Positions 2,071 to 20,799 of a stretch of 64,000 nt of DNA are shown here, in pieces (the stretch's first letter is position 1; the number at the start of each line of letters is the position of its first letter). Source of the stretch: Pyrodictiaceae archaeon (lineage in GTDB: Archaea > Thermoproteota > Thermoprotei_A > Sulfolobales > Pyrodictiaceae); the NCBI GenBank assembly GCA_027036135.1, contig JALVSY010000007.1, positions 900,880 through 964,879 of the forward strand, written 5' to 3'. A model generated the notes under the pieces. It was not told the DNA's origin, ran no database searches, and saw nothing but the letters and a program-made list of their open reading frames with translations. The position numbers were made by a program, and so were the translations under genes.

Positions 2071-2173
2071 CCCATGGCTCTCTCCCGGTATCGGCCTAGC
2101 ATAGTGGAGGGTTTCTCTGGGAATATGCAAGACCATTCCCGCATATTCCCTTCATCGTTCCCCGCCCCTCGCT

Positions 2174-4158: not shown

Positions 4159-4212
4159 AGGTGGTATATGGTACCGTTCTGAGTAGTAGCTGGGGAAACC
4201 TATATACCACCT
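4159..4212. promoter_or_regulatory. 11-bp inverted repeat overlapping a TATA-like box upstream of the RHH gene (candidate operator)
   Basis: AGGTGGTATAT (4159-4169) and ATATACCACCT (4202-4212). Confidence 0.5.
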
Positions 4213-4248
4213 CTGCCGGTACATGTACTGTCTTGGGTGGTACAAGGG

Positions 4249-4647
4249 ATGCCGCGGCCCGGGTACGCAAGCATAACCATAAGGGCACAGGTCAAGGAGA
4301 AGCTAGAACACTACGCAGCCCGGAAAGGCTACGCAACACTAAGCGACACAATAAACAGCCTCCTCGAAGAAGCAGAGTGCTGCCACAAGCTAGGAGAAAA
4401 ACTACAGGCAGTAGAGCAGAGACTAGGAGAACTAGAGACAACATGCAGGAAAACCTACCTAGCGCTACTCAGGCTCCTCGAGGAGCTCACAGGCAGCGAG
4501 GAAGAGGGGCCCGAAAGCCCCGCCGGGGCCGTGGAGGATGAGCATCCGGCACGAACAGAGCCCCGCCCACGCGGGGCAGTGGCGAGCACCTCCTCCACCG
4601 ACACCCAGCCCCGGCGGGGCCGGGAACCCAGAGAAAATATAGAGTAA
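4249..4647 (+). CDS. Ribbon-helix-helix (CopG-like) DNA-binding protein with coiled coil
   Basis: MPRPGYASITIRAQVKEKLEHYAARKGYATLSDTINSLLEE is a typical archaeal RHH pattern. Confidence 0.75.
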   Translation: MPRPGYASITIRAQVKEKLEHYAARKGYATLSDTINSLLEEAECCHKLGEKLQAVEQRLGELETTCRKTYLALLRLLEELTGSEEEGPESPAGAVEDEHPARTEPRPRGAVASTSSTDTQPRRGREPRENIE

Positions 4648-4684
4648 GAACCCACCCAATAAACATTATGGAGAGTGAAACAAA

Positions 4685-5410
4685 ATGATACTCAAGAGAA
4701 AGTCTCCGGAGGAGCGCTTCGCAGAGGACCTGGCGAGGGCCCTCGAGGAGGAGCACAAGCGCTGGCTCGAGAGCCTGCCGCCCGAGAAGCGCCGCCTAGT
4801 CCTCGAGCGCGAGAAACTAATGCTCAAGAACAGCCCCGCGTGGCGCGAGGCAGAGAAACGCATCGAACGCGGCGAAATCAAGCTATACTGGCGCAAGATA
4901 GACGGTGACTTACGCATCGTTGCTCGCGATACAATGAAGAACTTCCCCTTTAAGCGGCACAGGGATTACTTATTACTGCCTTCAGGCACGGAGGGATACA
5001 TGGAAGATCATCCTCCCATAAGCATTGATTGGATAACAGAAAATGCAGAAACTTGGCGGCCTCGCGCTCTGGCAACAACTAAACGCCTCGAGGAGCCCAT
5101 TGAACTTACAGGATACGATGGTTACTATGAAGTTCCTTACGTCTGTGAAATAGAGGCAAGGGATGGCCGCCGCTTCCTAGCCGCTGCCATGGAGTGCCTA
5201 CTCCTCGAGGAGATAGACGGCAGGAAGACCGCTAAAGAGGTAATAGATAACGTCTCGACACGCTACGTGGAGAAACTACTCCATAAATACAGGCAGCTAA
5301 TAAGAGAGGGGAAGCTAGCCAAAGAGGAAGCAAAAAATCTAATGGACTCAATACCTGGCGACGCCCTTGTCGGCCTCGCTATATTGAAAGATCTCGGCCT
5401 CATAGTCTGA
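4685..5410 (+). CDS. Hypothetical protein, possible C-terminal PqqD/wHTH-like segment
   Basis: 241 aa ORF; LLEEIDGRKTAKEVI ... LAILKDLGLIV. Confidence 0.65.
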   Translation: MILKRKSPEERFAEDLARALEEEHKRWLESLPPEKRRLVLEREKLMLKNSPAWREAEKRIERGEIKLYWRKIDGDLRIVARDTMKNFPFKRHRDYLLLPSGTEGYMEDHPPISIDWITENAETWRPRALATTKRLEEPIELTGYDGYYEVPYVCEIEARDGRRFLAAAMECLLLEEIDGRKTAKEVIDNVSTRYVEKLLHKYRQLIREGKLAKEEAKNLMDSIPGDALVGLAILKDLGLIV

Positions 5411-7658
5411 CTGTCTTTAGGTCATTACCGCCTATCGTCCTATTACGTCTCCAAGCTATCTCCACAGGCTTTTTGATCTTCATGTACACTGTTTGTCCTA
5501 TGATTGCTCCTGCCTCGGCGCCTGTCCTTATGCGCTGCTCGATGCGCTGCCACTCGATAGGGTGGAGTTCCTTCAGTTTTGCTGGCACCTTGATGCCTGT
5601 TTGCTTCTCAAACGTTATTGAGAACTCTCGTATGAATTGTCTTGCCCTGTTAGACATATATGCGTGTAGTCTGGCTGCTACTGCGCCGCCGAGGGCCGCG
5701 ACCTTTGCTGCTTTGCCGCCCGGGGCCTCCGCTACTGCCTCCTTGATGGCGCCTATCTCGCGCTTGGCTCTCTCTGCTACAGGCCTGACTGGGGCTTTGA
5801 GAGCCTCCTTTGTCGCTTGCCTGACGCGCTGTGTTGCTGGTGGTATCTCCTCTACTTGCGGCTTTTTCTCCAGATCAACACCCATGTTCTTAGCCATCTC
5901 CTCTGCTCGGGATGCTGCTATACTCCTGGCGGCCTCCTCTCCTCGCAGCTCATAGCCGCCCTTGACTGTCCTGGCGTCGGCGCTGGTTCCTGGCCCTGCC
6001 CATGCCTGGCCAGGGCTTGTTGCTGGCCTCATCCACTCGGTCCTGGGTGGTGCTCCTGTTGCTGGGCCCTGCCAGCCCGGCATTGGGCTGATGTGGCGCC
6101 ACTCGCCTGGGGCTACGCCCATGCCTGCCGGCGTTGGGTGTATTGGTGGTCTTAGGTACTCTGTGTGTCCTACTACCTGGCCGGGTGCGGCTAGCATCAT
6201 TGCCTGTGGCCGTGCTGCTAGGCCTAGCCTGGTTGCTGCTAGGGCTCCTAGTCTGCCGTAGATTCCTGCGAAGAGGCCTGCTCCGGGTAGTGGTGCTCCT
6301 ATTAGCCCGGCTATCATGGGTCCCGTGGCGAGCATTGCTAGGGGGAGGGCTACGCCGTAGCCTATGACTTCGAGTGGGGATGCGTTCGCGGGGTTTGCCA
6401 GCGCCCTGGCGCTGAGCCCCGCCATTGCTGCTAGGACGAGGTTCCACGCCATGAGCGCCACGATGACGTTTGTCATGCTCCTCGCTACGTGGCGGGTGCC
6501 GGGGAAGAGCCAGAGCACGGCTATGAGCGGGATTAGGAGGTAGAGGGCTTCTAGGAGAAGGTACTTGAGCAGCGCTATGAGCACGAACCCGGCGAAGCCC
6601 AGTGCCCCGGTCGCCGCCAGGCCCCCGGCCCCGCCGACGGGGAGCGCGGCCGCGAGCGCGGTGAAGCCCAGCAGCATGCTCATCCACGCCATCAGGACCC
6701 CGGGCTGCGCCATAGCTATGCTTATGCTGTTCACGAGCCTGGCAGCCCAGGTGTAGAGGGGTTGTGCGAGGCTGAGCGCCAGCAATACGTAGGCCACGTC
6801 TCTCAGAGCATCCAGCCAGGAGAGGCCTTTCTCGAACTCCCAGAACGCCTTCCAGAGCGCGAGCCCTATCACCGCGTAGCCTAGGAGGAAGACTGCGTAG
6901 CTATGGGTGTCTAGCAGCGGGGGAGCGGTCTCGGGGACGGTGACGAGCATGAGCCCTACCTTCTCGAAAACCCCGCCGGCACCCGTGTGGGCGAGGAGCC
7001 ACACAACAGCGTCGCTGAGCAGAGCAAAGGCCTTCCCCACGGCCTTGGCGGCGTACGTCATTATGCAGCCGGGCCACGAGGAGGGGCTCCAGCCGCAGCT
7101 AGCTCTCAGCTCGCTAAACGCTGCGTCGAGCTCGGAGCCCAGGCTCCTTATAGTGACCCTGCACTCCGCGGAGACCTGGCCCGTGACCCTTATTGTGTAC
7201 TCGCCGTCCTCCCCGTAGCTGTGGCTCGCCACGCAGTAGCCCTGCCCCGTACATGTAGAGGAGGTGTTATCGCCCCAGTCAATACTCGCGCTCACGCTCC
7301 TACCCGGAGCAGCGACCACAACGCTCACGGGGATGTACTTGTAGAACCCAGCCGGGGGACAGAACACCTCAGCCCCGCCACCAGCACCACCAGCCCCGGC
7401 GCCAGCGGCGTAGCCGCTAACCCACGCAACTATTACCGCAACCGTTACCGCCCACGCCCAGCTGCTTTTCGCGATATCTGAGCGGCCTAGCGCGTATGCT
7501 ATCCCGCCTATCATGGTGAGGATTACGGCGAAGGCGTAGCCTAGGCCCCTGAGACCCGTGGCGTTGCTACCGCTGGCCGCGTAGCCTATAGCTGCTAGCG
7601 ATAAGACCAGGTGTAGCTGGAGCAGCGCAGCCACTAGCCAGAGCGCTCTCCGCCTCAC
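5400..7658 (-). CDS. VirB6/CedA-like polytopic membrane protein with N-terminal pilin-like hairpin and PKD domain
   Basis: Likely GTG start at 7658 with signal peptide (ORF track extends to 7853); PKD motif SIDWGDN..SHSYGEDGEYTIRV; many TM helices; P/G/A-rich and charged C-terminal tail; co-oriented with virB4. Confidence 0.7.
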   Translation of the reverse strand: MRRRALWLVAALLQLHLVLSLAAIGYAASGSNATGLRGLGYAFAVILTMIGGIAYALGRSDIAKSSWAWAVTVAVIVAWVSGYAAGAGAGGAGGGAEVFCPPAGFYKYIPVSVVVAAPGRSVSASIDWGDNTSSTCTGQGYCVASHSYGEDGEYTIRVTGQVSAECRVTIRSLGSELDAAFSELRASCGWSPSSWPGCIMTYAAKAVGKAFALLSDAVVWLLAHTGAGGVFEKVGLMLVTVPETAPPLLDTHSYAVFLLGYAVIGLALWKAFWEFEKGLSWLDALRDVAYVLLALSLAQPLYTWAARLVNSISIAMAQPGVLMAWMSMLLGFTALAAALPVGGAGGLAATGALGFAGFVLIALLKYLLLEALYLLIPLIAVLWLFPGTRHVARSMTNVIVALMAWNLVLAAMAGLSARALANPANASPLEVIGYGVALPLAMLATGPMIAGLIGAPLPGAGLFAGIYGRLGALAATRLGLAARPQAMMLAAPGQVVGHTEYLRPPIHPTPAGMGVAPGEWRHISPMPGWQGPATGAPPRTEWMRPATSPGQAWAGPGTSADARTVKGGYELRGEEAARSIAASRAEEMAKNMGVDLEKKPQVEEIPPATQRVRQATKEALKAPVRPVAERAKREIGAIKEAVAEAPGGKAAKVAALGGAVAARLHAYMSNRARQFIREFSITFEKQTGIKVPAKLKELHPIEWQRIEQRIRTGAEAGAIIGQTVYMKIKKPVEIAWRRNRTIGGNDLKTVRL

Positions 7659-7906
7659 CCCGTTACCCCCACTACCTCTAGGCCCCTCCGGGAGAAGCCC
7701 GGAGAAGCCTGGTACGAGGCCACGACCCCGACAGCACCTCATTCCGGAGCCGATATAGACTCCATTGATAATTCCCTTATCGGGGTTATCAATGAATACT
7801 ATGTGGCCGGGTAAAACACGCATGCCTAGAAAGAGGAGAAGCACCCAATTCATGATAGTAACTATATATAGTTTGTCTCACGGTCACTAGAACAGGGAGA
7901 AGTAGC

Positions 7907-8089
7907 GTGAGCAGGGCAGAGGCAAGTGTAAGGGTTTATCGTAGCGTGGAGGAGCTCCCCGAGGTACTGGAGCCAGGCAAGTACATCATAGAGGGCGAGG
8001 AAGTAGAGGTCTACGAGCCCCTTAGCCGAGAGGCAGTTACCGAGATTATTCACTTCTTCCGGAAGCGTCGAGGCCACAGGTTTATCTAA
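7907..8089 (+). CDS. Small acidic protein, putative antitoxin
   Basis: 60 aa, acidic, with a TATA-like box upstream (7862-7870); its 3' end overlaps the RelE-like gene. Confidence 0.5.
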   Translation: MSRAEASVRVYRSVEELPEVLEPGKYIIEGEEVEVYEPLSREAVTEIIHFFRKRRGHRFI

Positions 8090-8414
8090 GGTGTCTCCAC
8101 AGCCTTCGATAGGTCTCCTCGCCTCGTCTATCCGCGGCTATGAAAACGACTTCACACCTAGAGACATCTACCGCGAAGAGGAGTCTCCACCAGACCTTGC
8201 CTAGCCACAGCCGGTAGCGCCGCACAGGGCCGCCATGCCTCGCCACGATAGGTTCTCTCAAGAGTCGCTGAATGGCCTCTGGGTCATTGTTCAACTCCTT
8301 CTTCAGTTCCTCGAGCCACTTCCTAAACGCCTCCAGAAGCCCTCTCTTCCGGAAGACCTTCTCAACAAGAGGACTAGCAACAACCCTCCACTTGCCGCGG
8401 CACTCCTCAAGCAT
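8082..8414 (-). CDS. RelE/ParE-like toxin
   Basis: Basic ~110 aa protein: WRVVASPLVEK...VRRYRLWLGKVWWRLLFAVD...VVFIAADRRGEETY. Confidence 0.6.
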   Translation of the reverse strand: MLEECRGKWRVVASPLVEKVFRKRGLLEAFRKWLEELKKELNNDPEAIQRLLREPIVARHGGPVRRYRLWLGKVWWRLLFAVDVSRCEVVFIAADRRGEETYRRLWRHLR

Positions 8415-8528
8415 TATGAGAGCCCCGAGGAAGAAATGCCATTGCCTCGTATATAAGCATTGAGGTAACACTTTTCACGTCCTCACGGGAAAAAACTGTC
8501 CAATGGATTTATAGGAATACTCGCTGCG

Positions 8529-9890
8529 CTATGGTCCTCTCAGGGGCCACCCGCCGCCCGTGACTATGTATAGTACTGCCAGTAGTGCTAGGATTGAGGC
8601 TGCCAGGCCTAGGTATGTTCTCCGGAGCACTGGTGGCGGCCCCGGGCTCCATGCTAGGGTGAACGTCCCGGTCGCTGTGTTGTTGAAGCTGTCGACGGCT
8701 ACTGCGGTGTATACGCCGGGCACGGCGGGGCACCACGTTGCACTGCCCAGCCCGGTTCTCAGTGCCACAAGCCTACCGTCCTCGTAGACTTTCAGCGCCA
8801 CGCTCTCGCACGCCCCGGCGGAGACCGTAATACAGTAGTCCTTTAGGCTAATGCTTGGCTTCACGTCGTCTTTTACCAGTACTGTCTCGTAGCCAGTCTC
8901 GTTCGCCGGAACTACCTCCCACGACTCGTTGACGACACGGCAGTCGTCGGCTATGTACCTGGCCAGTCTCCAGCCGAATGGCAGCGGCACCGTCAGCGTA
9001 TCGTTGAGGCATGTTCTTGTAGGCTCGGGCTTGTCCTCTATGAAGCATATCCTCGCTCTAAATAAGTGGCTGCTTGTCGGCTTCCTCGGCGGGCCCAGGA
9101 CAAGTCTAACGGTTCCCGAGGCGCTCGGTGAGGGAGGGCCCTCGATAGGTATGCTCTCAGCCGGGGCGCCGTAGCCCACCAGTCTAATAGCCGTAGCGTT
9201 ATCCACGAGCACCGTTAAGTTGTAGAGGAGGAGCATGCCCTCCTCCATGGGCACCGGGGTCTCGTTACCCAGCCGGAGGCCCTGGCCAAGGTTATAGAGA
9301 AGGACACTGGCGTTCACCAGCACAGAGCCGTTGCCGAGCGCCCTGTAGCCAGTAATGTTCAGGGAAACAACCAGTAGTGATGAATTAACCCTCCTTGGGA
9401 TGATTGTCGCTGTAGCTGTCCCCGCCAGGGTCGTGGTCGCAAGATAGCTCTGGGTCACGGTTGTCGTGCTTGTCTCAGTGCAGGTGCCATTATACCATCC
9501 CAGGCATACTGGGTACGAGTAACGGTACCAGGCAGTATAGCTACAGGTAAGCCCCTTCACAAGCTCATAGCTGCCTAGTGGCGCGTCGCAGGGAATCCTG
9601 GTCGTGGATACTAGTACCGTTGATGAGCCCTCCCCGAGGATTATCGGGCCACAGGTTAGGACGGCGGGCGGCTTCGGCCCGTAGCTAGGGTACCAGGGCG
9701 GCGGGCTCACGCCGATCAGCGTGTTCGTGAACGTGTAGAGAGCAGTAATGTTCATGCAGCGATAAACCGCGTTGCGTAGCCCGAACTGGTCGAGGGGACT
9801 AATTATGCTCGAGCCACTGCTACCCGCGTAGACAACGCTGCCTACGAGGGCCAGGAGCGTGGCCATAGCCACGATAGCTCTCATTTTCAC
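8529..9890 (-). CDS. Secreted, membrane-anchored Cys/Thr-rich surface protein with C-terminal Ig-like domain
   Basis: Signal peptide; many N-x-S/T sequons; PGVYTAVAVDSFNN Ig-like strand; C-terminal TM helix. Confidence 0.75.
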   Translation of the reverse strand: MKMRAIVAMATLLALVGSVVYAGSSGSSIISPLDQFGLRNAVYRCMNITALYTFTNTLIGVSPPPWYPSYGPKPPAVLTCGPIILGEGSSTVLVSTTRIPCDAPLGSYELVKGLTCSYTAWYRYSYPVCLGWYNGTCTETSTTTVTQSYLATTTLAGTATATIIPRRVNSSLLVVSLNITGYRALGNGSVLVNASVLLYNLGQGLRLGNETPVPMEEGMLLLYNLTVLVDNATAIRLVGYGAPAESIPIEGPPSPSASGTVRLVLGPPRKPTSSHLFRARICFIEDKPEPTRTCLNDTLTVPLPFGWRLARYIADDCRVVNESWEVVPANETGYETVLVKDDVKPSISLKDYCITVSAGACESVALKVYEDGRLVALRTGLGSATWCPAVPGVYTAVAVDSFNNTATGTFTLAWSPGPPPVLRRTYLGLAASILALLAVLYIVTGGGWPLRGP

Positions 9891-9893
9891 AGG

Positions 9894-11798
9894 TTACCAC
9901 TCTCCGGGCCTCGTCGAGAACACCCTCAGCTCCTCTGGCGTGGGCTGCACGTAGATGCGTAGACGCCAGCCACCAGCGACCCTGAGTATTCCCTGGCCAG
10001 GCTCGGCGTCGAGGAGCTGCTCCTCCTCCGCCTCGCTTAGATTATAGATGGGCTTAACCGCCTCCAGCGATGCCTCGTTCAGGCGTAGTAGAAGCACGGT
10101 GGCCGACTGCTCTAGGATTGTCCTGCCATGCTCGCTTCTCAGCACGTCGTGGGGCCTCTGGGTCGCGAACACGAAGTTAACGCCTTTCTTGCGACCCCTC
10201 CTCGCTATGTCGGCGAACATCAACATCAATGAGGGGTACTGGGCGAACATCCATCCCTCGTCTACTACTAGCAAGGAGTTGCGGAGCTGGGAGGAGACTA
10301 CGAGCGCTAGTAGTGCTCCTACCAGAGCCCTGGCGCGGCGGGACCTGATGCCGGCGAGCGCGTAGACAGCGCCCCTCCCTGTGGGGAGCGGGGGCTCTCC
10401 ACGGTATATCCACGAGTCGGCCTCGGCTGCTTTCAGGTAGTTCTCGAGCCCCGTGGCTCTCTCCTCGGCGAGCCTAGCTGCCTCCTCTAGGCTCTCGGAC
10501 TCGCCTAGAACGTCTACTAGCTCGCCTCGTAGCTCGTCGGGGACGCGGTAGTACTCCTGCACAATGTCCACGGCCTCGTCGAGCCCTATTACCCCCCTCC
10601 TCCACAGCCTGACAGGGTCCAGGCCTAGGCCTCCACGTTCCCCAGCAGCGTCCTTGCTTAGCTCGTAGCCCGCGAGGCCGGTAGCCAAGTACTCCCTAAT
10701 ACCAATGTACTCGGACTCAGGGTCTATGATTATGGTCTTCTGGCCCAGGCCAGCAGCCCACCACCTCCTCACATACACTTTCAGCGTCATGCTCTTACCT
10801 GAACCAGTCTCCCCCAGTACCACCACGTTGTAATTCGGCCTAGCATAGGGGTTGAAGACAACGGGCTCCCCGGTATCCAGGTCGTAGCCGAGATAGAGGC
10901 CGCCAAAGTCGACCAGCTGCTCCTGCACCAGAGGATACAATGCCTGCGCGCTCAGAGTATCGACATAATGGAATACCGGCACCGTCCACTCAAGATTATA
11001 TAATCGTCTCTGGTAGAACCCCGGGCCACTAGCATATTCTACCATCCTCGAGGCTAGGAGCTCCTCGAGGCGCCTGCTGCGCTCCCAGAGCTCCTCCTGG
11101 CTAGAACCCCTAACTACCAACACTATCGCTATCTTCACGAGCCGGGCCTTGCCTCCTAGGAGCTGTTGTAGCTGCTGGAGCTTGTATGCCTCCTGCTCTA
11201 GCTGCCAGGTCGTGGAGCCACGGAGCACTGATTGTAGCCTGAGAAGCCTCTGGTCAATCATCCTCCTCGCTTTAGCGGGCTCCACGGGCTCTATGAGGAA
11301 GTGTATCTCATCGGTAGCATAGATTAGCTCGAGGGGCCACGCCTCGGGCAGGCTGTCGGGCAGCTTGACAACAGTATACGCCCTAGCGTAACCGCCATCC
11401 TCTAGCTCGAGGATGCCGCGGGCTACGCGCCTCACTACAGGCCTGTAAGGCTCCGCTGCTGGCCTTGGCTCGTAGCCGAGCTGCATTAACAAGCCATAAT
11501 CCAGGCCCTCGGCGAAGAATAGGAGCCGGCGAAACTTGAAGCCCTCGATGCTGTCCCATGCTGCATAAATCGAGATACGAGCCTTATCATTGGCAGCGTT
11601 CAATAACGCGGTCCACTTAGATAGGAATCTGTCGCGCTCCTTCTCGGGGAGAGCCGCGAAGGGGTAGCCCTGGACCTGTAAAAGGAGGCTGAGCTCACTG
11701 CTTCTTGGGGCTCTCTTCCTCGCTCTTTGTTTCTCCCTCTGCCCCTGGCTTTGCTTCGACTTTGATAGGCTGGGCACGCTTCTCCCCGCTATAGACAC
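9894..11798 (-). CDS. virB4: VirB4/TraE/CedB-like conjugative ATPase
   Basis: NPY..PNYNVVVLGETGSGKS (Walker A), IIDPESEY, LVVDEGW (Walker B), RRGRKKGV..FATQRP. Confidence 0.9.
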   Translation of the reverse strand: MSIAGRSVPSLSKSKQSQGQREKQRARKRAPRSSELSLLLQVQGYPFAALPEKERDRFLSKWTALLNAANDKARISIYAAWDSIEGFKFRRLLFFAEGLDYGLLMQLGYEPRPAAEPYRPVVRRVARGILELEDGGYARAYTVVKLPDSLPEAWPLELIYATDEIHFLIEPVEPAKARRMIDQRLLRLQSVLRGSTTWQLEQEAYKLQQLQQLLGGKARLVKIAIVLVVRGSSQEELWERSRRLEELLASRMVEYASGPGFYQRRLYNLEWTVPVFHYVDTLSAQALYPLVQEQLVDFGGLYLGYDLDTGEPVVFNPYARPNYNVVVLGETGSGKSMTLKVYVRRWWAAGLGQKTIIIDPESEYIGIREYLATGLAGYELSKDAAGERGGLGLDPVRLWRRGVIGLDEAVDIVQEYYRVPDELRGELVDVLGESESLEEAARLAEERATGLENYLKAAEADSWIYRGEPPLPTGRGAVYALAGIRSRRARALVGALLALVVSSQLRNSLLVVDEGWMFAQYPSLMLMFADIARRGRKKGVNFVFATQRPHDVLRSEHGRTILEQSATVLLLRLNEASLEAVKPIYNLSEAEEEQLLDAEPGQGILRVAGGWRLRIYVQPTPEELRVFSTRPGEW

Positions 11799-12252
11799 GC
11801 AGCTCTCGGAGAACCCTGTCGCCGAGCATTAGCCTGACAGTATGCTCCCCGGGCTCTAGGCCAGCTATCTCTACCCTGGCTAAGCCGTTGTCGACGCGGA
11901 GCCTATCATGTTCTTCTCCATCAACCTCTACGACTAGCTCCCCGGCCTCAGGCAAGGTAATGTATACCATTATGCTGCCCAGCGGGGCCCAGTACACTGG
12001 CTCGGTGGCTGGCTCGCGCTTCGCTAAGAGCTTCGAGATGGGAGGCTTAATCGGCAGAGCACCGAGCACAATCCCGGCAGCGAGAATAGCTGCTCTGGCC
12101 CAGAGCGGTAGCGATAGCTGCAGCGCTACGAGGAGTCCTACTATACTGAATAATGCCAGCCTTATCCTAACCGGGAACCCAGCGGCATAGAGGAGGGGCT
12201 CCTCGAGCCAGCCCAGGTCTGGTATGGAAAAAACCGAGACTAGGCGGGGCAT
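11695..12252 (-). CDS. Two-TM membrane protein (VirB3/PrgI-like position) with C-terminal Ig-like domain
   Basis: Two hydrophobic helices followed by GLEPGEHTVRL; lies between the pilin gene and virB4. Confidence 0.55.
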   Translation of the reverse strand: MPRLVSVFSIPDLGWLEEPLLYAAGFPVRIRLALFSIVGLLVALQLSLPLWARAAILAAGIVLGALPIKPPISKLLAKREPATEPVYWAPLGSIMVYITLPEAGELVVEVDGEEHDRLRVDNGLARVEIAGLEPGEHTVRLMLGDRVLRELRVYSGEKRAQPIKVEAKPGAEGETKSEEESPKKQ

Positions 12253-12262
12253 GCTCTCCTCC

Positions 12263-12562
12263 TCATGCTATGAACTGGCCTATAATCCACAACACCACGG
12301 ATATAGCTATTGCAGCCATTACTGCCCTACCGAGCCACTCTGGTCCACGGCCAAACGCGTAGTTGATCACCCCCACGAACGCCGCTATAACTATTATCGC
12401 GTAAGCTATCTTCTTCAGGTAGTTGGCCACTTGGTCGGCCAGGCTCGCCGCCTTCTTGAGGGGGTTTGTAGCGCTGGTTTTGTTGGTCTGGGCGTGCGCA
12501 GCTGTGGCTAGGAGAAGCAGGGTAGTTATCACTATTGTGAAAAAGACGTAGTGGTGCTCCAA
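12263..12562 (-). CDS. VirB2/TrbC-like (CedA1/TedC-like) conjugative pilin
   Basis: 99 aa; signal peptide ending AHA, amphipathic helix, then two hydrophobic helices around YAFGRG. Confidence 0.7.
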   Translation of the reverse strand: MEHHYVFFTIVITTLLLLATAAHAQTNKTSATNPLKKAASLADQVANYLKKIAYAIIVIAAFVGVINYAFGRGPEWLGRAVMAAIAISVVLWIIGQFIA

Positions 12563-12575
12563 GGGGTTTTCACCT

Positions 12576-12995
12576 CTAGGACGTGAACGTCGCCTGGAAC
12601 TCTGAGCCGTCGCTGAGAGTCACTATTACTATGTGTTGTCCGCTGCCAAGATTTGGTAAGGTAACTATCTTATGAAGCTCCTGGCCCGGTTTGAGGAGAT
12701 AGCCGCTGGCACCGATGCCTAGCTGCGAGCCAACATTCGTGCCGTCTATGGTTACTTTTGTTATGTTTGCTGCCGCGCCACCGACGTTCCTTATGCTTAG
12801 CTCGATATACGCCGTGTTACCGACATAGTCCACGGAGGCTGTTATCATTAGCTGGGGCTTCTTCGCTACCGCGCTGGCACTGGCGCTTACATACTTGTAG
12901 ATAACATAGCCGATGGCTATTGTCGCTGCTAGGAGGATGGCCGTTGCGATGAGGGGGCTTATTCCGCGAAGCCCTCTGCGTTGCATTGTCTCCAC
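12576..12995 (-). CDS. Archaeal type IV pilin (probable major pilin)
   Basis: Class III signal peptide RRGLRG/ISPLIATAILLAATIAIG; IRNVGG motif. Confidence 0.9.
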   Translation of the reverse strand: METMQRRGLRGISPLIATAILLAATIAIGYVIYKYVSASASAVAKKPQLMITASVDYVGNTAYIELSIRNVGGAAANITKVTIDGTNVGSQLGIGASGYLLKPGQELHKIVTLPNLGSGQHIVIVTLSDGSEFQATFTS

Positions 12996-13201
12996 CCTTG
13001 TTCTCCACTAGGCTGCTAAGGAGTGGGAGAGCGCATGCCTGTGGGGAGGGTTTGGCCTTGTTGCCGTGGCTGTGGTAATCTGTGAAGGCGTTGTGGCTGT
13101 GATTCTTGGCGTTGTTTTTGTGGGTTGGTCGGTGTTGCTGGGCGTTACCCGGTGCATGGTGGAAAGCTATAAATATGGGTGTGTAGTGGATGGTGCAGGC
13201 C

Positions 13202-14074
13202 TCAATACCTGCCTCCATGGGCTGGGTATATGGGCTCCCTCACTGGTTTCTCCCGGAGCCTCCAGGCACCCTCCCCGATGCGCTCCACTATGCCTAGCGT
13301 CTCCAGCTTCTTTAGTACCTGAACCGCGCTCGGATAGTGTAGGGCAAGTATTCTCGCAAAATCATGGGCCGAGAAGGGTTGGTAGTCGAAGCTCGTCCTT
13401 AGGAGGTTGTAGAGTCTCTCCAGGTCGAAGGTAACCGTTATCCTCCCGTTCATACCCCTCATCCTCCGAGTAGAATCGATGAGGGGGAGAAGGAGCAGCT
13501 CTGCGGGGGCGAGCCTCCCGAGCCTGAGTCTGTGAGCCCTTGTAGCGGAGGGGATGTAGCCCCTCAGAGCCACTATGAAGAAGCCCGGGTAGCTCGCGAC
13601 GCTGCTCGCGTGGACCCGTATTCTTCCCTCGCCTCTCAGCAGGACGTGGTGGTTCTCGAGGCCTAGTAGGCAGCTGCTCCATATCCTTATCGCTCTATAG
13701 AAGCTTGCTCTCGAGGAGCCTGTGAGCTCCCATGCCTGCTGGGCTACTGGTCTCCCGAGGAGTCCTCTCGCGTGCTCCACGAGCCATGCCCAATAGGCGG
13801 CTGCCGCCGCCAGGGCCCGTTCATCGGCGCCGCGGCCATTGTTTACGCGGCACTCGCGCGCGTCTAGGAGCCACGCGGTGGAGTAGGCTAGCTCCGTGGC
13901 TTCCCGGTAACGCTTCACCCCGAGCTCCTCGAGCGCCGAGACCAGGAGTCTCCGGTAGTGCTCCGCCTCCTCGTCTACGCGTATGCGGCTGCGAAGCTCC
14001 TCGAGCAACAGTATGTCGAGGACGAGCTGCGCTCCCTCCCGCTGCTCGCCGAGGCTGTAAAGACTGGCAGGCAA
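13202..14074 (-). CDS. Putative regulator: TFIIB/cyclin-like helical segment plus C-terminal wHTH
   Basis: GRGADERALAAAAAYWAW resembles the TFB repeat (GR...AAA.LY.A); FSAHDFARIL..AVQVLKKLETLGIVERIGEGAWRL is wHTH-like. Confidence 0.55.
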   Translation of the reverse strand: MPASLYSLGEQREGAQLVLDILLLEELRSRIRVDEEAEHYRRLLVSALEELGVKRYREATELAYSTAWLLDARECRVNNGRGADERALAAAAAYWAWLVEHARGLLGRPVAQQAWELTGSSRASFYRAIRIWSSCLLGLENHHVLLRGEGRIRVHASSVASYPGFFIVALRGYIPSATRAHRLRLGRLAPAELLLLPLIDSTRRMRGMNGRITVTFDLERLYNLLRTSFDYQPFSAHDFARILALHYPSAVQVLKKLETLGIVERIGEGAWRLREKPVREPIYPAHGGRY

Positions 14075-14167
14075 TGGCGGCAGCCCTCTTATTCTGGACA
14101 GGAGCGTAACACCTTACAGCGACTCCGCTTATTCATTTCCACGAGAAATGCATGGAGCGCTGAAAGA

Positions 14168-16135
14168 CTAGAAGACGTTGAGCAACATTATTGTCGCCAG
14201 CGTGGAGAGCACGGCAGCCAAGGGCCACAACGTGTCCCTCACCGTCAGGCTTATCGCCTTGGCGGCGAGGAAGCCCATCACCGCGGCAGCTATGAGCGCT
14301 AGCCAGGCTATGAACCCGGCGACGTTGCCGGAGAGCGTGAGCGGCAACGACTCGAGCACCTGCGTCGTCGAGCCCATGATTCGCTGCAGCCCAGCAGCCA
14401 TCACCGCCACTATCGGGGGGAACCCGATGGCGAGGAAGCCCAGCAGCCTAAGCCTCATACTAGCAGCCCTGTGTGCACTGACGTGCGCGTATACGAGGTC
14501 ATAGAGCCGCTCGAGTGCCAGAGGGTCGCTGGCCCCCTGCGAGCCAACGATGTTGACTACCGTGTACAGGGTGTACTTTGCTAGCCAGGAGCGTGCCCTA
14601 ATACCGCCTGACCTGGCCGCCGCCCTCGCAGCAGCTGCCAGGGGCTCCTCTACGCTGCCAACGGCGTGCTCCAGTAGCTGGGATACAGGCTTATCGGACA
14701 TGCTCCTCGTGTACTCTATCACCATTCTTAGTAGTGGCAGTAGCTCCCGCTCCTCTTTGCTCACTAGGCGCTTCTGTGCTCTGAAGGCCACGCCGTAGAC
14801 GCCTAGCCCGGCTGCAGCCGAGAACCCAGCGGACATTATCGCTGGTAGCCCGAGGACCGTGCATAGGAGGGCGGCTGCGCTTGCAGCCACCACGGCGGCT
14901 ATGACTGCCTCGGCGTCCCTGTATTTCTCCCTGAGCCGGGGCTGGCTACCAGCGAGTAAGGAGTAGCCTAGGGGCGCAGCCAGGATTATTGCTAGGGCTG
15001 CTAACCCAGCGCCCCTACCGCCGAGGAATGCCGAGAACATGACAAATATCAGGGTGGTCGCCAATAAGCCCATCAAGCCAGTGCCGAGGGCTACTCCGTT
15101 CTCCGCGTACGCGGCTATCCTGGCCCTTAGCTCGTCGGTCTCAGCGCGCAAGGTGTCGCTGAGAAAAGCTGCCACGTCGCCGCCGCTATCTCTTATCGCC
15201 AAGTAGTAGGCGTAGAACCTGCGCAGCCTACGGCTAGGATGCTTGTTAGCGAGTTCCTCGGGGCTCTTACCAGCATCAGCACCTATGGCTGGTAATAGTT
15301 TACTCTTACGGGCCTCTTCGAGCGCATCCTCGAGAGAACCTGTACCCGAGCGCTCCATGAGCCAGGCCCACAGGCTGAGATATGGGAGCTCCTCCTCCGC
15401 CGCCCTCGCTCTTTCCCTAGCTTTTGCCTCGAGGTGTGCTCTTAGGAGTGGCAGGGATAGAGGCGGCAATAGCGCTGATAGTAGTAGCGCCTTGCTCCCA
15501 GCAAGCACCGCCAGGCCAGCCAGCACAGCGGACGCGGCTAGACTACCTAGTAATATTATAGATACTAGTGCTGCGGTCTCGAACCTAGTCCACCTATAGC
15601 CAGCCTTCTCAACCGCCTCGGGGACCCCGAGCCGAGCTGCAACCCTATCCCCGAGGGGTATGGCGCCTAGGACCACGGGTACAACGTATCTTAGTACTCC
15701 TCGGGGCTCTTCGGGTCTCTCTCTGAGCCCCTTCCTAAGCATGTAGAGCATCCACGCGCCGGGGATTATCGGCAGTGCACCTATCAGCGCTAGTACTGGG
15801 TTCCTCTCTAGCTGGAGCGTGGACGAGACAACCCCCAGCACCATCATGGCTATAGAGGCTAGGAGTACTAGTCTCCTAGAGGGATAGAGCGCCAAGCGGT
15901 AGAGAAAACCAGTTGCCAGGTCTAGGGCAAATAACGCGAAGAGGAAAACACCTAGGCCGAGCACAGTGGGCGTGACACGGACCTCAGGCTCCGCTAGGCC
16001 CAGCAGCGTTCTCCACGGAACCATCCCGAGGATTATTAGGAGCGTTGACGCTATCGCCACCGCTAACTGGTAGCCCGTTATTATCCTCCTTGCCTTCTGC
16101 GTCTTTGCCTGAGCCGCCTCCATTACCCTCCCCAC
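14168..16135 (-). CDS. TadC/FlaJ/GspF-like type IV pilus platform protein
   Basis: Multi-TM protein with two cytoplasmic domains (EEELPY..SGGDVAAFL; ERELLPLLR); directly downstream of the assembly ATPase; start may be ATG 16123. Confidence 0.85.
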   Translation of the reverse strand: MGRVMEAAQAKTQKARRIITGYQLAVAIASTLLIILGMVPWRTLLGLAEPEVRVTPTVLGLGVFLFALFALDLATGFLYRLALYPSRRLVLLASIAMMVLGVVSSTLQLERNPVLALIGALPIIPGAWMLYMLRKGLRERPEEPRGVLRYVVPVVLGAIPLGDRVAARLGVPEAVEKAGYRWTRFETAALVSIILLGSLAASAVLAGLAVLAGSKALLLSALLPPLSLPLLRAHLEAKARERARAAEEELPYLSLWAWLMERSGTGSLEDALEEARKSKLLPAIGADAGKSPEELANKHPSRRLRRFYAYYLAIRDSGGDVAAFLSDTLRAETDELRARIAAYAENGVALGTGLMGLLATTLIFVMFSAFLGGRGAGLAALAIILAAPLGYSLLAGSQPRLREKYRDAEAVIAAVVAASAAALLCTVLGLPAIMSAGFSAAAGLGVYGVAFRAQKRLVSKEERELLPLLRMVIEYTRSMSDKPVSQLLEHAVGSVEEPLAAAARAAARSGGIRARSWLAKYTLYTVVNIVGSQGASDPLALERLYDLVYAHVSAHRAASMRLRLLGFLAIGFPPIVAVMAAGLQRIMGSTTQVLESLPLTLSGNVAGFIAWLALIAAAVMGFLAAKAISLTVRDTLWPLAAVLSTLATIMLLNVF

Positions 16136-17609
16136 TATGTCTGCCTGCCTGGGAGAAGGAGACGCGCCGAGGCTCGGCCACCTTTACGAGTTCGTCTCTC
16201 TCGGGGTCGTAGCGGTAGAGGAGGCGTTCGCCACCGCTCGGCAGAACCTCATAGATGGCCACGACCCTGCGAACGGTTCTCTCGCCCAGCCTTACCTTGT
16301 CGAGGACAACAACAGACCAGAGAAGTACCAGCATATCCTCCCTTACGCCTAGCTTCAATAGTCTCAGCTTCAGCTCCTCCCAGTCCCGGGCATGGAACGT
16401 AGCAGCGCTAGCCTCCCCGAGCGCTGCTACCTCGAAGAGGTCCAGTATCTCTGGTCCACGGGCCTCCGTTATCGCTGTGAATTGTCCCCGGAGCCTCAGC
16501 GCGACCCGTATGAGGTCCTGGTACGTTACCTCGGTCTGCCTACTCGCGGCGAGGCTCCTCGCCCTCCTCACTCTCAGGCTTATGAAGCGTGGATGCCTCG
16601 GCCTAAGCTCCGGGACATCCTCTATGGCTACGAGCTTCCAGTCACCGGGGAGCTTCTCCATCAAGGCGTTTAGCAGCGTGGTCTTGCCCGTGCCCTGGGG
16701 GCCTATAATGAACACCATTCCGCGGCTCAGCAGCACTCTCAGCAAGTACTCGGCTGCCTCCCCGCTCAGCATCTTATCCGCTACCAGGTCCTCGAGGCTC
16801 AGCGGCTTCTCTGGGTGCTTCCTAACCGATAGACTCGTGGCACTAGCTATCGTGCCGAGAACCATTGTGACGCGGTGACCGTTCAGCTCCGCCTCGGCGA
16901 TAGGGAATGCTGGAGATATAGCTGTCCCAGCGGCGGAGGCCAAGCGCTGCAGGTATTCCCGGAACTCATACTCGGGGGGCGCAACTATGCTGGTAGGGAT
17001 GTACTCTCTTCCCGGCATCTTCCTGTGAATAATATCTACGGGTCTCCCGGCCACAGCACTTATCTCCTCAACATCCGGGTCGAGTACTAGCGGATAGAGG
17101 AACCCCCAGGGCGAGAGAGACTTCTCCACGTAGTAGCGGAAGGCCTCTGGCTGCCGCTGCATAATCTCCGAGACACCCAGCTTCTCTGCAGCCTCGCCAG
17201 CCTTCTCTGGCGGGAGACCGTGCTTCTCCAAGTACTCTATGACTATGCGGAGCGCCTTCTCGGCGTCAGGGTCTAAGCGGGGCTCTACGACCTCGTACCT
17301 ATCCTCGCCCACTACTATGGTCAGCACGCCGACGCCGTACTCGAGGACCCGGTGCTCGCTAATACTCCCCGCCTGGTCCTTGTCTCCCTCGCCGAACTGT
17401 CCCCCAGACTCTGCAGCTCCAGCACCCTCCCCACCCGCCTCAGGCTCCTCGGAAGCCCCATGGATTCTCTGAGCCTCTTCATCCTCGAGCAGGTCAAGCA
17501 ACAGATCCTCTTCTATCCCACGATGCTCTGTCTCCTCCTCGCCGCTCGGCTCCTTCACCAGCTCCTCGGGTATCTCCTCCCCGTTATCCCCCGCCATGGG
17601 CTCCATCAC
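15984..17609 (-). CDS. Type II/IV secretion (TadA/FlaI/UpsE-like) pilus assembly ATPase
   Basis: DPDVEEIS, GPQGTGKT (Walker A), IEDVPEL, ALRLR..EARG.E, TFHA. Confidence 0.92.
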   Translation of the reverse strand: MMEPMAGDNGEEIPEELVKEPSGEEETEHRGIEEDLLLDLLEDEEAQRIHGASEEPEAGGEGAGAAESGGQFGEGDKDQAGSISEHRVLEYGVGVLTIVVGEDRYEVVEPRLDPDAEKALRIVIEYLEKHGLPPEKAGEAAEKLGVSEIMQRQPEAFRYYVEKSLSPWGFLYPLVLDPDVEEISAVAGRPVDIIHRKMPGREYIPTSIVAPPEYEFREYLQRLASAAGTAISPAFPIAEAELNGHRVTMVLGTIASATSLSVRKHPEKPLSLEDLVADKMLSGEAAEYLLRVLLSRGMVFIIGPQGTGKTTLLNALMEKLPGDWKLVAIEDVPELRPRHPRFISLRVRRARSLAASRQTEVTYQDLIRVALRLRGQFTAITEARGPEILDLFEVAALGEASAATFHARDWEELKLRLLKLGVREDMLVLLWSVVVLDKVRLGERTVRRVVAIYEVLPSGGERLLYRYDPERDELVKVAEPRRVSFSQAGRHSGEGNGGGSGKDAEGKEDNNGLPVSGGDSVNAPNNPRDGSVENAAGPSGA

Positions 17610-17935
17610 TTACACAGCCATGGAGGGGTTACGAGAATATAGGTTCCCTGAGGGACTATGCTAGGGCATGGCTGGAGTGTGTTACTTGTGATGTTCGGCA
17701 CTATCCAGCACTGGAAGCTGCCCACGGTGCGCCAGTACGTCAGGTTCACTGTTATTGGAACGTAGCAGACGACGTGGGTCTCGTTGATTTCTACAACCTT
17801 CACGGGCCGTGGGGGCTCTGGCTTAGGGGTGTGGGCTTGTATCCACTTGTATAGCATTGGCGCTATCGCCACGGCTGCGGCGAGGAGGATTAGGGCTGCG
17901 TATAGCTCGGCTATTGCGCGCATAGGCCTAGGCAT
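17606..17935 (-). CDS. Small type IV prepilin-like protein
   Basis: MPRPMRA/IAELYAALILLAAAVAIA class III-like signal; AGGGG RBS; stop overlaps the ATPase start (GTGA). Confidence 0.75.
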   Translation of the reverse strand: MPRPMRAIAELYAALILLAAAVAIAPMLYKWIQAHTPKPEPPRPVKVVEINETHVVCYVPITVNLTYWRTVGSFQCWIVPNITSNTLQPCPSIVPQGTYILVTPPWLCK

Positions 17936-18005
17936 TATCTCTACCCCTCTTCTCCCGGGTTTCCCGGTAAGAGTGGAGGAGCTGGGAGAAGAGGGGCGAG
18001 CAACC

Positions 18006-19256
18006 ATGCGCGGCATAGGTACCTTGTTCGCTGGCTTGGTGGTACTGCTCGCTATTACGGCACTAACCGTGTACATGGTTCACGCGTACCTGGTGGCGCA
18101 GCAATCCCTGCGCGAGCAGCAACTGCTCTACGAGAAAGCAAGATACATAGCCGAGCACGCGAACATAACTGGCAGCACCATCAGCTTGCCGGAGCCAGCC
18201 GACCTAATAATAGTAGACCCCAGCGGTGTACCCCACGTAGCCAAAGACGTGAAAACGCTTACACTACCATGGAGCCCTGCAAACCTGAAAATCTACGTGG
18301 TGAAACGGGGCCGAGTACGGATAGCAGCCGCCGACCCCGTGGCCAGGGCCGCGGCCTTGGCCTCGGTCGCTGCAGCCCCGCTACAACCACTAGGCAGCTC
18401 TGCAGGCAGCATAGCTGGCTGCGAGTGGTACCTAGACCCATTCATCTACAACATAACTAGGAACCCAGCCGAGTATAGGGGCTATACATTGTACAAGGAG
18501 ATGCCGCAGATAGGTTACCTCTTCTACACAAGCCCTAGGTATCTTTGCCAAATGGATCCTATTAGGTATCCTAACTGGGCTATGTGGAAGTATCCTCTTC
18601 ACATCCTAGAGATCTTAGGAATTAATACTACAAGGTTGCTGAGCGACTGTCCCCAAATATATGTTTGGGATATAGCCATTGTGCCATACATAGGTGTCAT
18701 CGTCCGGGGGATACCACCAAGCATGCTGTACAACTATATGGAGCACTATTATGGCGATTTCTACCTAATATTCTACAATGGTACATGGAGAGAGATAGGA
18801 AGCGGTGTATACTGGGATTACACCATCCAAATAGGAAGTACACGTATAACGATAAAGAAGGTATACCTAAACCCGCGGTTCGCACCCATAGGTGACTGGA
18901 AGGTATTCATCAATGTGTCTTCACCCATTATTAGCGTTAACTATTCGAGAACAGAGACCCTTATCCCAGGCCAGAACGAGCTATGGATAAGCGCTAAGCT
19001 AGGTAACGGGCTAATACTAGCTGCCGAGAAGTGGTATGCCTATTACTTCGCAGAAACCTACAAAGGATTCCCAGCAGGGTGGGGAGATTACTGCTCGCAG
19101 CTGGAGCCCTGTGCCAAGGGATTTGGCATATACCGCAAGCTAAGTGCCTATGCAAAAGGAAGTGATTATGAATATCCATTACAAGCTGTTCTACTACTTA
19201 GGCATAGTGCTTACTCGTCATCACCAAGCATAGCATATATCTATAAGCACTGCTAG
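18006..19256 (+). CDS. Large minor pilin/adhesin with class III-like signal and Tyr/Trp-rich C-terminal domain
   Basis: MRG/IGTLFAGLVVLLAITALTVY after a GAGGGG RBS; the ORF-track start at 17784 overlaps the opposite-strand pilin. Confidence 0.72.
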   Translation: MRGIGTLFAGLVVLLAITALTVYMVHAYLVAQQSLREQQLLYEKARYIAEHANITGSTISLPEPADLIIVDPSGVPHVAKDVKTLTLPWSPANLKIYVVKRGRVRIAAADPVARAAALASVAAAPLQPLGSSAGSIAGCEWYLDPFIYNITRNPAEYRGYTLYKEMPQIGYLFYTSPRYLCQMDPIRYPNWAMWKYPLHILEILGINTTRLLSDCPQIYVWDIAIVPYIGVIVRGIPPSMLYNYMEHYYGDFYLIFYNGTWREIGSGVYWDYTIQIGSTRITIKKVYLNPRFAPIGDWKVFINVSSPIISVNYSRTETLIPGQNELWISAKLGNGLILAAEKWYAYYFAETYKGFPAGWGDYCSQLEPCAKGFGIYRKLSAYAKGSDYEYPLQAVLLLRHSAYSSSPSIAYIYKHC

Positions 19257-19266
19257 TCTTTTCTTT
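19257..19266 (+). terminator. T-rich candidate terminator after the adhesin gene
   Basis: TCTTTTCTTT immediately after the stop codon. Confidence 0.4.
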
Positions 19267-19433
19267 GAACCAGTCCGCGTCCCCTACTCCTTCTGCCCAG
19301 TTACGCTGCTCACTTCTCCCAGGGTGGGGCCTCGGCCTAGGAAAGTACTGACATTAGTCAAAGAAGTCGCTGACGCCTCGGCCTTCCACGCCCCGTCTCC
19401 CGGTCAGCCTTTTCCTAGACGGAGGGATAGAGT

Positions 19434-19739
19434 GTGGGCGAGTGGGTTCTATGCAGGATATTCTTCCGGGGAGAGAAAACACTAGAGATATGCAATAAGC
19501 TACTAGACGAGCTAGCAGAGAAAGGCTACATACACATCCGTAGAGAAGACCCAGAGAAAAGCATCAAGTACCACGTAGCCAAGAGGCTACGAGAACTAGG
19601 CATACTCATGCACCGAACAATAACCAGTTGCGGTGCAGACAAAATATACCGCATATACGTGGTAGACCGCAAGAGAATGGCTAAGCTAAGACTAGAATTC
19701 GACCAACTAGACCGCCCATGGCCGATATGCATTGAGTGA
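19434..19739 (+). CDS. Small basic putative DNA-binding (wHTH-like) protein next to the integrase
   Basis: 101 aa; YHVAKRLRELGIL..KIYRIYVV; GGAGGG RBS. Confidence 0.6.
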   Translation: MGEWVLCRIFFRGEKTLEICNKLLDELAEKGYIHIRREDPEKSIKYHVAKRLRELGILMHRTITSCGADKIYRIYVVDRKRMAKLRLEFDQLDRPWPICIE

Positions 19740-19919
19740 CTAGATTATTATAATATTTAGGTATTCTCCACCCAGGTATTTTCCCAACAATCACTACGAA
19801 TAGAGTCTATACAGGGCTATAGACAAGCTTCTCTATACCGATGACTTATATGAGAGAAGGCAATTACCAATAATCATAACACGCACCAAGGGCAACTCAA
19901 CAGCGACAAGGATACCACC

Positions 19920-20795: not shown

Positions 20796-20799
20796 TCTT

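Follow-up and report, generated by a model that had tools for sequence, protein, structure and literature searches.

The DNA analysed here is a 64,000-nucleotide (nt) stretch of a Pyrodictiaceae archaeon genome (assembly GCA_027036135.1, contig JALVSY010000007.1, positions 900,880 to 964,879 of the forward strand), referred to below as the window. At 5400-19256 it contains a cluster of intact open reading frames (ORFs), all on the minus strand except for one divergent gene, a large pilin-like 'adhesin'. An earlier note on this sequence had listed a largely co-oriented series of prepilin, assembly ATPase, TadC-like, regulator, major pilin, VirB2-, VirB3- and VirB4-like, surface protein and VirB6-like genes with a divergent adhesin. 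All of these genes are present as described, and family searches back most of the names. The co-oriented array spans 12.7 kb, in which the genes from the small pilin through VirB4 overlap or lie very close together, and is predicted to encode two surface machines, a DNA conduit of T4SS (type IV secretion system) type and a type IV pilus. Array and adhesin gene belong to an integrated element of ~35.4 kb that starts 14.5 kb left of the window. Its principal in-window features are as follows (protein lengths in amino acids, aa; GC, guanine-plus-cytosine content).

1..20851, no strand: in-window part of the putative integrated conjugative element (52-nt direct repeats, GC, empty site)
5400..7853, minus: VirB6-like polytopic membrane protein, 817 aa (fold of a domain model)
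8529..9890, minus: surface protein, 453 aa (by translation: signal sequence at the N-terminus, numerous N-x-S/T sequons, membrane anchor at the C-terminus)
9894..11798, minus: VirB4-family conjugation ATPase, 634 aa (AAA_10, 40.0 bits against a cut-off of 27.5)
11695..12252, minus: VirB3-like candidate, 185 aa (conserved N-terminal motif, two hydrophobic segments, C-terminal beta domain)
12263..12562, minus: TrbC/VirB2-type conjugative pilin precursor, 99 aa (PF04956, 34.3 bits against 27.9)
12576..12995, minus: type IV pilus major pilin, 139 aa, class III signal RG/ISPLIATA (UpsA model, E 6e-14)
13202..14074, minus: winged-helix regulator, 290 aa, its gene flanked by those for platform and pilin (weak C-terminal MarR/TrmB matches)
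14168..16135, minus: TadC/UpsF-like polytopic platform protein, 655 aa (NCBIfam UpsF, E 3e-22, model positions 18-480 of 484)
15984..17609, minus: type IV pilus assembly ATPase of the FlaI/BasE/TadA class, 541 aa (T2SSE, 72.2 bits against 24.9)
17606..17923, minus: small pilin-like protein, ~105 aa from an internal start, M-RA/IAELY followed by a hydrophobic helix (translation)
18006..19256, plus: large pilin-like 'adhesin', ~416 aa from an internal start, M-RG/IGTLFAG (translation)
19434..19739, plus: conserved 101-aa protein adjoining the integrase (71% identity in G019 and 83% in G015, beside the integrase in both)
19920..20795, plus: tyrosine recombinase, archaeal integrase, 291 aa, intact (PF16795, 31.1 bits against 27)
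20800..20851, plus: right attachment (att) site, attR, duplicating 52 nt of the 3' part of tRNA-Asn from the anticodon stem to the 3' end (identity to C7:886344-886395)

An integrated element with two attachment sites

The element occupies G000:C7:886344-921730, equivalent to window -14535..20851, and is bounded by a 52-nt direct repeat whose two copies (C7:886344-886395 and window 20800-20851) are 100% identical. The left copy lies inside a complete tRNA-Asn(GTT) gene (C7:886317-886392, equivalent to L020:4318-4393). The right copy begins 5 nt past the stop codon of the integrase gene, which forms the end of the element. Rfam places a partial tRNA at 20782-20837(+), directly 3' of this stop codon, and ARAGORN reports no tRNA in the window. 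The direct repeats found inside window 1-26000 are short families at chance level, with no att pair among them because the left att site lies off-window. The earlier note had described an integrase/tRNA-bounded element. Integrase and att repeats bear this out; the bounding tRNA lies off-window, and the tRNA inside the window is not part of the element. The latter, the single intron-bearing tRNA that Rfam finds in the window (21028-21163(-), 52.5 bits), has a ~66-nt insert in the anticodon region, was missed by ARAGORN and is kept beside the empty site of the relative described below.

The element differs in composition from its surroundings: its GC is 0.572, while the genome as a whole has 0.497 and the flanks have 0.45-0.47. 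In the complete genome of a member of the same genus (G004) the site is empty: ABC-transporter genes and tRNA-Asn are followed, after ~210 bp, by right-flank sequence, and the 35 kb are missing. No close VirB4 was found in the four same-genus genomes searched, three of which are only 60-86% complete. A member of the same family from another genus (G019) carries a syntenic 35.5-kb element in tRNA-Thr(GGT), flanked by exact 74-bp repeats and equipped with a different integrase (36% identity). The core genes of the present element are all intact and 50-84% identical to their G019 counterparts (VirB4 83%, pilus ATPase 76%, TadC 71%, VirB6-like 71%, major pilin 68%, VirD4 63%, VirB2 50%).

This arrangement indicates that the element entered the 3' half of tRNA-Asn through the action of a tyrosine integrase, with the 52-bp att repeats as its trace. 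Conservation at a fixed chromosomal site without att sequences, which the earlier note had named as the finding that would speak against mobility, is the opposite of what we observe. Att repeats, integrase, the unoccupied site of a congener and the related element at another tRNA together support the identification of the island as an integrated mobile element.

Transfer module

Two of the VirB-type genes are recognized by family. Besides AAA_10, the VirB4 protein matches NCBIfam VirB4 models at E 2e-31 to 1e-15 and the CedB model at E 1e-7. It is 33-35% identical over 92-95% of its length to VirB4 of Sulfolobus plasmids (over 82% for pNOB8, NC_006493), pT33-3 falls within the same 33-35% range, and the identity to Thermococcus nautili NZ_OX281346 is 34% over 92%. 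The VirB2-type pilin belongs to a family in which 10 of 11 homologues from the database match PF04956 and which conserves an AHA/AYA-Q site (a Sec signal with A-x-A before Q), a GRGPEW loop and two hydrophobic helices. In comparisons with the PDB the single pilin sequence returned designed coiled coils or noise, and the family profile designed coiled coils and no conjugative pilin.

The earlier note had seen no VirD4 and had proposed a search of the left part for VirD4 and a relaxase. That search corrects the first point: the left arm of the element, outside the window, encodes a VirD4-type coupling protein of 1137 aa (L020:14266-17679(+)), with 41.9 bits against 20.5 for TrwB_AAD_bind, 36.9 against 22 for TraG-D_C and 29.1 against 20.1 for T4SS-DNA_transf. 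It recognized no relaxase or replication family.

The 817-aa membrane protein contains an extracellular PKD domain at about residues 157-238, whose profile matches 4xed_A (E 4e-6), and a long C-terminal tail. No VirB6/TrbL sequence match was obtained for it, by single sequence or by profile, or for the 10 relatives scanned; its single-sequence PDB search gave designed coiled coils or noise only. A family profile run against 1.84 billion representatives was dominated by multi-PKD giants, from which ~22 full-length relatives were picked by eye. When residues 240-560 were modelled on 31 sequences (predicted local distance difference test, pLDDT, 77.4), the first-ranked of 48,161 chains was R388 TrwI/VirB6 (7o3v_F; root-mean-square deviation 6.2, 223 of 261 residues aligned) with a Z of 10.1, a value within the range below ~13 that helical bundles may reach by chance. 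The next row reaches only Z 6.4. With Foldseek, the top five rows for this domain are all TrwI/VirB6 chains, at weak E values of 0.24-0.62. The full-length model is poor (pLDDT 55), and Foldseek recovers from it only the PKD domain, with VirB6 at rank 27. On the strength of the domain model we accept, with caution, that the 817-aa protein has a VirB6-like fold.

The N-terminal block of the 185-aa VirB3-like candidate aligns across nine loci (eight besides this one), always beside VirB4. PrgI (PF12666) is weakly matched in two of the nine family members, with a best E of 0.025, and the family profile finds no match in the PDB. A predicted complex of the candidate with VirB4 gives weak support: the pair scores 0.56 and the best control 0.00, no fewer than 57% of contacts recur between runs, and the partner has a pLDDT of 60 or more. 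Among 80 solved complexes 58 attain this mark, and among 110 mismatched pairs 2 do; with a score of 0.60 or less, only 7 of the 80 attain it, along with the two mismatched pairs. The surface protein keeps its slot between VirB4 and the VirB6-like gene in G019 (41-54% identity) and G015 (29%); it has no family match, and the protein atlas gave nothing usable. Among the VirB-type names proposed earlier, those of VirB2 and VirB4 are therefore borne out by family and that of VirB6 by fold; VirB3 stays weak.

Pilus module

The assembly ATPase matches models of archaeal pilus ATPases best (BasE 7e-42, FlaI 2e-40, TadA-type 1e-39). The overlapping platform gene encodes a protein that matches BasF at E 5e-12 as well as UpsF, and reaches 22.9 bits for Pfam T2SSF, under the cut-off of 25.2. 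The major pilin scores 52 bits with UpsA (cut-off 130), 18.9 with Pilin_N (cut-off 25.2) and just under the cut-off with TIGR02537, and has a full-length PDB match in 8fk7_A (E 0.006). The Ups equivalog cut-offs are reached for neither UpsA nor UpsF (79 bits against 400), and the pilus parts are homologues, though not orthologues, of the Ups parts. The winged-helix regulator is kept in the same position in G019 (80% identity), G015 (39%) and G034 (42% over a part).

The earlier note's pilin and adhesin genes are real ORFs, with likely starts now revised to 17606-17923(-) and 18006-19256(+); both pilin-like calls rely on N-terminal motifs. The small protein is 63% identical in G019, where the ORF starts at the same motif, and has no family match. 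For the large protein neither a family nor an atlas match was found. Only its residues 1-185, counted on the long ORF, match G019 (49-56%), and the GC of the gene falls from 0.57-0.60 to 0.44-0.47 after ~600 nt, near the end of this match. The C-terminal part of the large protein seems to have been exchanged, as would be expected of a partner-recognition domain.

Prepilin peptidase function is supplied by the host, because the sole Peptidase_A24 match in the genome (C7:1014087-1014425, 30.9 bits against 26.5) is chromosomal and lies ~92 kb to the right, outside the element. The self-contained machine envisaged in the earlier note is thus overstated: transfer and pilus genes do share one element, but the peptidase is chromosomal.

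Linkage of pilus and transfer genes across genomes

By tblastn, 13 related loci of 10 genomes were compared, with VirB4 identities from 27% to 84%. Pilus ATPase and TadC genes stand beside VirB4 in six of the 13 (G019, G035 contig C10, G015, G057, G034 and G009), and a seventh locus ends in an apparent ATPase start. In an order-wide sample of 251 genomes this type of VirB4 is present in 47, from 28 of 83 genera. A TadC-like gene lies within 10 kb of it in at least 12 of the 47, in five families; the count is a lower bound, as 150 of the 242 TadC matches were taken in. About 1-2 co-locations would be expected by chance, given 1-3 such genes per 1.5-2 Mb genome. Among the matches listed there was no co-location in the 13 VirB4-bearing genomes of family f13, whose members have large genomes and in some cases small second contigs.

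A tree of 24 ATPases unites five of the seven linked to such elements, the present one included and three host families represented, in one clade with a Shimodaira-Hasegawa approximate likelihood-ratio test (SH-aLRT) value of 99, and none of the 17 chromosomal ATPases falls inside. The VirB4 tree has a similar shape. A transfer core with VirB4, VirD4 and VirB6-like genes and no nearby pilus ATPase occurs, for example, in G035 contig C33, G037 and G048. These distributions make the pilus module an old and frequent companion of the transfer module, and not an obligatory one.

G035 contains two transfer clusters with sister VirB4s (L033/L034, contigs C10 and C33). One has a pilus ATPase and TadC; the other has VirD4, VirB3-like, VirB4 and VirB6-like genes and no pilus genes within 18 kb. 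They form a natural pair for asking whether the pilus acts in trans.

Left arm, variable region and flank

The remaining in-window features of the element lie mostly at the left end of the window.

1..1454, minus: insertion like the insertion sequence (IS) IS607, with a serine recombinase at 792-1454 and a TnpB-like ORF at 1-759 that runs off the window (Resolvase PF00239, 87.3 bits; OrfB_IS605 weak)
2174..3961, minus: winged-helix protein, 595 aa, in a low-GC (0.45) cargo stretch (MarR_2, 26.4 bits, just under the cut-off)
4237..4647, plus: ribbon-helix-helix protein, 136 aa (MatP_C RHH, 26.4 bits against 24; 38% match in the G015 locus)
4685..5410, plus: conserved 241-aa protein, divergent from the transfer operon (57% identical in G019)
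8082..8471, minus: small 129-aa ORF between the surface protein and VirB6-like genes (weak Gp49/HigB-like match, E 0.044)

The variable region of the element is window ~1-4200, where G019 has other genes; the 595-aa protein has no G019 counterpart, and the resolvase of the IS607-like unit (also at L020:18485-19001), which is single-copy in the genome, is unmatched in the G019 element. The 241-aa protein belongs to no family found and has weaker matches beside the VirB6-like genes of G035 and G015. The 129-aa ORF had no tblastn match in the 13 related loci, the G019 element included, and may be an addiction toxin acquired by this copy of the element.

Most left-arm genes are conserved in G019; among them are a PIN-like protein and several proteins without a function call. 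Directly after the tRNA-Asn att site, three tandem paralogues of 176, 149 and 149 aa (L020:4367-5832; G000:C7:886366-887831) have a single G019 counterpart at the corresponding position, with 40-50% identity; they could be assigned to no family and may be regulators or excision helpers. Two further adjacent genes (L020:8806-10522; G000:C7:890805-892521) are 64% and 73% identical in G019. The first matches DUF5591 (27.1 bits against 26) and phrog_34505 (E 8e-14), and the second, of 309 aa, weakly matches a queuine tRNA-ribosyltransferase phrog (E 1e-3). As a lead, the pair may encode a DpdA-like DNA modification that protects transferred DNA. Outside the element, 6.7 kb to its right, lies a 5S rRNA gene (window 27531-27650(-), Rfam 60.1 bits).

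Proposed mode of action and alternatives

Judged by its gene content, we consider the island, with moderate confidence, to be an integrated conjugative element (ICE) that combines a T4SS-type DNA conduit with a type IV pilus serving donor-recipient contact; the adhesion-plus-transfer function proposed in the earlier note is likewise a deduction from gene content. In such a mechanism the integrase would first excise the element. The host's single prepilin peptidase would mature the pilins, and the FlaI/BasE-like ATPase, the UpsF/TadC-like platform, the UpsA-like major pilin and the small and large pilin-like proteins would form the type IV pilus. This pilus would then bring donor and recipient into contact or stabilize that contact, much as Ups pili act for the DNA importer Ced and thin pili for the plasmid R64, with the exchangeable C-terminal part of the large pilin-like protein setting partner specificity. 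The conduit would consist of the Sec-processed VirB2/TrbC pilin, the VirB3-like protein, VirB4, the putatively glycosylated surface protein and the PKD-bearing VirB6-fold channel, and would be served by the VirD4 coupling ATPase encoded 9 kb further left; VirD4, VirB4 and VirB6 with the VirB2 pilus would finally move the DNA.

Several points weigh against this model. Excision, expression, pili and transfer are all deduced from the genes alone. No attP/attB joint was present among the contigs of four metagenome runs, where contigs break at the att repeat and rare circles are not visible in this way. The public runs listed as carrying the sequence include no RNA run. No relaxase, origin of transfer or replication protein was recognized in the element, and no relaxase family was found among 30 element ORFs with Pfam or among 10 with PHROGs. 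VirB6 is identified at fold level only, and the identity of the 185-aa VirB3 candidate is weak, with position, topology and weak hints as its basis. The role of the Ups pili cannot be transferred to this system, because pilin, platform and ATPase score far below the Ups/Bas cut-offs. Nor is the pilus module obligatory, because its presence is scattered on the VirB4 tree and two of the seven ICE-linked ATPases fall outside the clade, as unresolved long branches; the pilus-linked state requires three changes on the VirB4 tree, a number that 103 of 500 label shuffles also reach, so it is no more clustered than under shuffling. Finally, the IS607-like insertion fits either a resident or a decaying element.

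The strongest competing explanation, which we regard as rather unlikely, is that the pilus-like genes form an integral part of the transfer machine itself. The FlaI-like ATPase would then be the VirB11 equivalent, the TadC-like protein would be a membrane platform, and the pilins would form a short pseudopilus that helps to breach the S-layer (the surface layer) or to drive DNA, as in competence systems. The single co-oriented array with its overlaps and very short gaps and the dedicated clade of ICE-linked ATPases accord with this explanation, and no other VirB11 candidate was seen among the element ORFs in family scans. The ATPase does match VirB11/TrbB models (E 2e-22 and 4e-21), but the FlaI/BasE/TadA models are far better (E 1e-40 versus 1e-22). 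Moreover, VirB11 systems come without a TadC partner or class III pilins, whereas here the pilus set is full, UpsA-like major pilin and large tip-like protein included, and the transfer core can exist without the pilus module, for example in G035 contig C33, G037 and G048.

It is improbable that the pilus module is mere cargo, an adhesion or biofilm trait of benefit to the host with no part in transfer. Its position in the transfer operon is kept down to 27% VirB4 identity and in five host families, which is rare for cargo; the ATPase and VirB4 trees are broadly congruent; and the real variable region of the element lies elsewhere, at window 1-4200. These observations have to be set against the scatter of the pilus-linked state on the VirB4 tree, the presence in this host of three or more further T2SSE ATPases that clear the family cut-off by a wide margin, and the description of archaeal type IV pili as numerous and often horizontally transferred (Makarova 2016, PMC4858521, in the part of that work considered here).

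A defective or domesticated remnant, whose T4SS-like genes would serve the host as a Ced/Ted-like DNA importer and whose pili would serve aggregation, is very improbable: Ced and Ted are indeed reported as chromosomal derivatives of the same machinery that work with type IV pili (PMC9905601, as excerpted), an IS has inserted and no relaxase is recognized among the element ORFs, but the att repeats are exact, integrase and core genes intact and VirD4 present, a congener has the target unoccupied, the related element in a second genus occupies another tRNA, the CedB and CedD models match weakly, and all Pyrodictiaceae with genomes are said to keep a chromosomal Ced of their own (PMC12518558, as excerpted), of which the CedB family search of this host genome returned only weak matches below cut-off.

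Returning to the ICE with contact-making pilus, we tentatively offer a wider proposal, which is possible but doubtful. The element may represent a widespread, undescribed ICE class of hyperthermophilic Crenarchaeota outside the Sulfolobaceae, in which one conjugation machine would work with two pili, a mating pilus of VirB2 type and a type IV pilus that is dedicated and co-evolving. Such a machine would be the still-mobile counterpart of the domesticated Ced/Ted-plus-Ups systems, and the C-terminus of its large pilin-like protein would decide the recipients.

Comparison with known systems

No paper on such elements in Pyrodictiaceae or Desulfurococcales was found in the literature, supplementary files lying outside the search. 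The architecture itself is not without precedent, and its novelty was overstated in the earlier note: Krupovic et al. 2019 (PMC6563490) describe thaumarchaeal ICEs with VirB4, VirD4, VirB6, VirB3, TadC, FlaI, PilT, prepilin peptidase and pilins. Compared by their published description, in the portion of the paper drawn on here, these elements share the parts list with ours, are integrated, have no recognized relaxase and are known from sequence alone. They differ in their hosts, which are mesophilic to thermophilic Nitrososphaeria, in their size (median 64 kb versus 35 kb here) and in having prepilin peptidase, PilT and TFIIB/ParB genes of their own; no such genes were found in the present element. 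Conversely, the VirB2/TrbC pilin present here is not in the published list. The pairing of transfer and pilus genes on an archaeal element has thus already been published from sequence; it has been predicted before and never tested.

Among plasmids, the nearest systems are the pNOB8/pING/pKEF-type plasmids of Sulfolobus and pT33-3 of Thermococcus, which have a related VirB4, a VirD4/TraG-type ATPase and no recognizable relaxase, and some of which integrate through a tyrosine recombinase. The present element goes beyond this with a recognizable VirB2 pilin, a protein of VirB6 fold and a full set of pilus genes. The statement of the earlier note that pNOB8-type plasmids lack a type IV pilus agrees with our search, which gave no pilus ATPase match at E 1e-20 on the records of Sulfolobus plasmids and pT33-3. 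In the excerpts of Beltran et al. 2023 (PMC9905601), no archaeal conjugative plasmid has a recognizable pilus protein, those described so far have no recognizable relaxase, and Ced and Ted are domesticated. According to the passages used from a 2025 review (PMC12857230), only VirB4 and VirD4 are recognized as T4SS parts of archaeal plasmids, and VirB4 of pT33-3 is reported to be needed for transfer. On the present element a VirB2 pilin, a VirB6-fold channel, VirB4/VirD4 and a type IV pilus set are found on one bounded mobile unit with relatives in at least five host families.

The IncI1 plasmid R64 carries variable PilV tip adhesins, which the swapped C-terminus of the large pilin-like protein resembles. 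Both R64 (PMC12102498) and the PAPI-1 island (PMC12857230) are described, in the sections consulted, as combining a T4SS with a type IV pilus for mating contact on one element. The likeness does not go beyond analogy: the present pilus belongs to the archaeal FlaI/TadC/class III pilin type, and there is no outer membrane. Neither a relaxase nor a shufflon was seen in this element, and variation takes the form of gene-segment replacement between elements.

A further comparison is with Ced (Sulfolobales, Aeropyrum) and Ted (Thermoproteales), the chromosomal importers that provide the only structurally known archaeal mating pili. In common with the present element they have a VirB4 ATPase, a VirB6-like channel and a VirB2-like pilin; the Sec signal of TedC is cleavable, as is that of the pilin described here. 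Ced needs Ups type IV pili for contact, and the pilin and platform found here are nearest to UpsA and UpsF among NCBIfam models. There are also clear differences. Both are chromosomal DNA importers located away from ups, whereas the present genes all reside on a single mobile element together with att sites, integrase and VirD4; VirB4 scores 30.9 bits with the CedB model against a cut-off of 700; and no HerA, Rad50 or ParA neighbours were seen in family scans of the element ORFs. If the carrier of the G019 element is Pyrodictium abyssi, as the source name of its VirB6-like homologue suggests, its filaments would be open to cryo-electron microscopy, P. abyssi cultures having been used in filament work (PMC12518558, in the part considered). 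Ced and Ted have been described as domesticated from mobile elements whose identity has not been pinned down, and the element described here offers a concrete, mobile and VirB2-bearing candidate for their ancestry.

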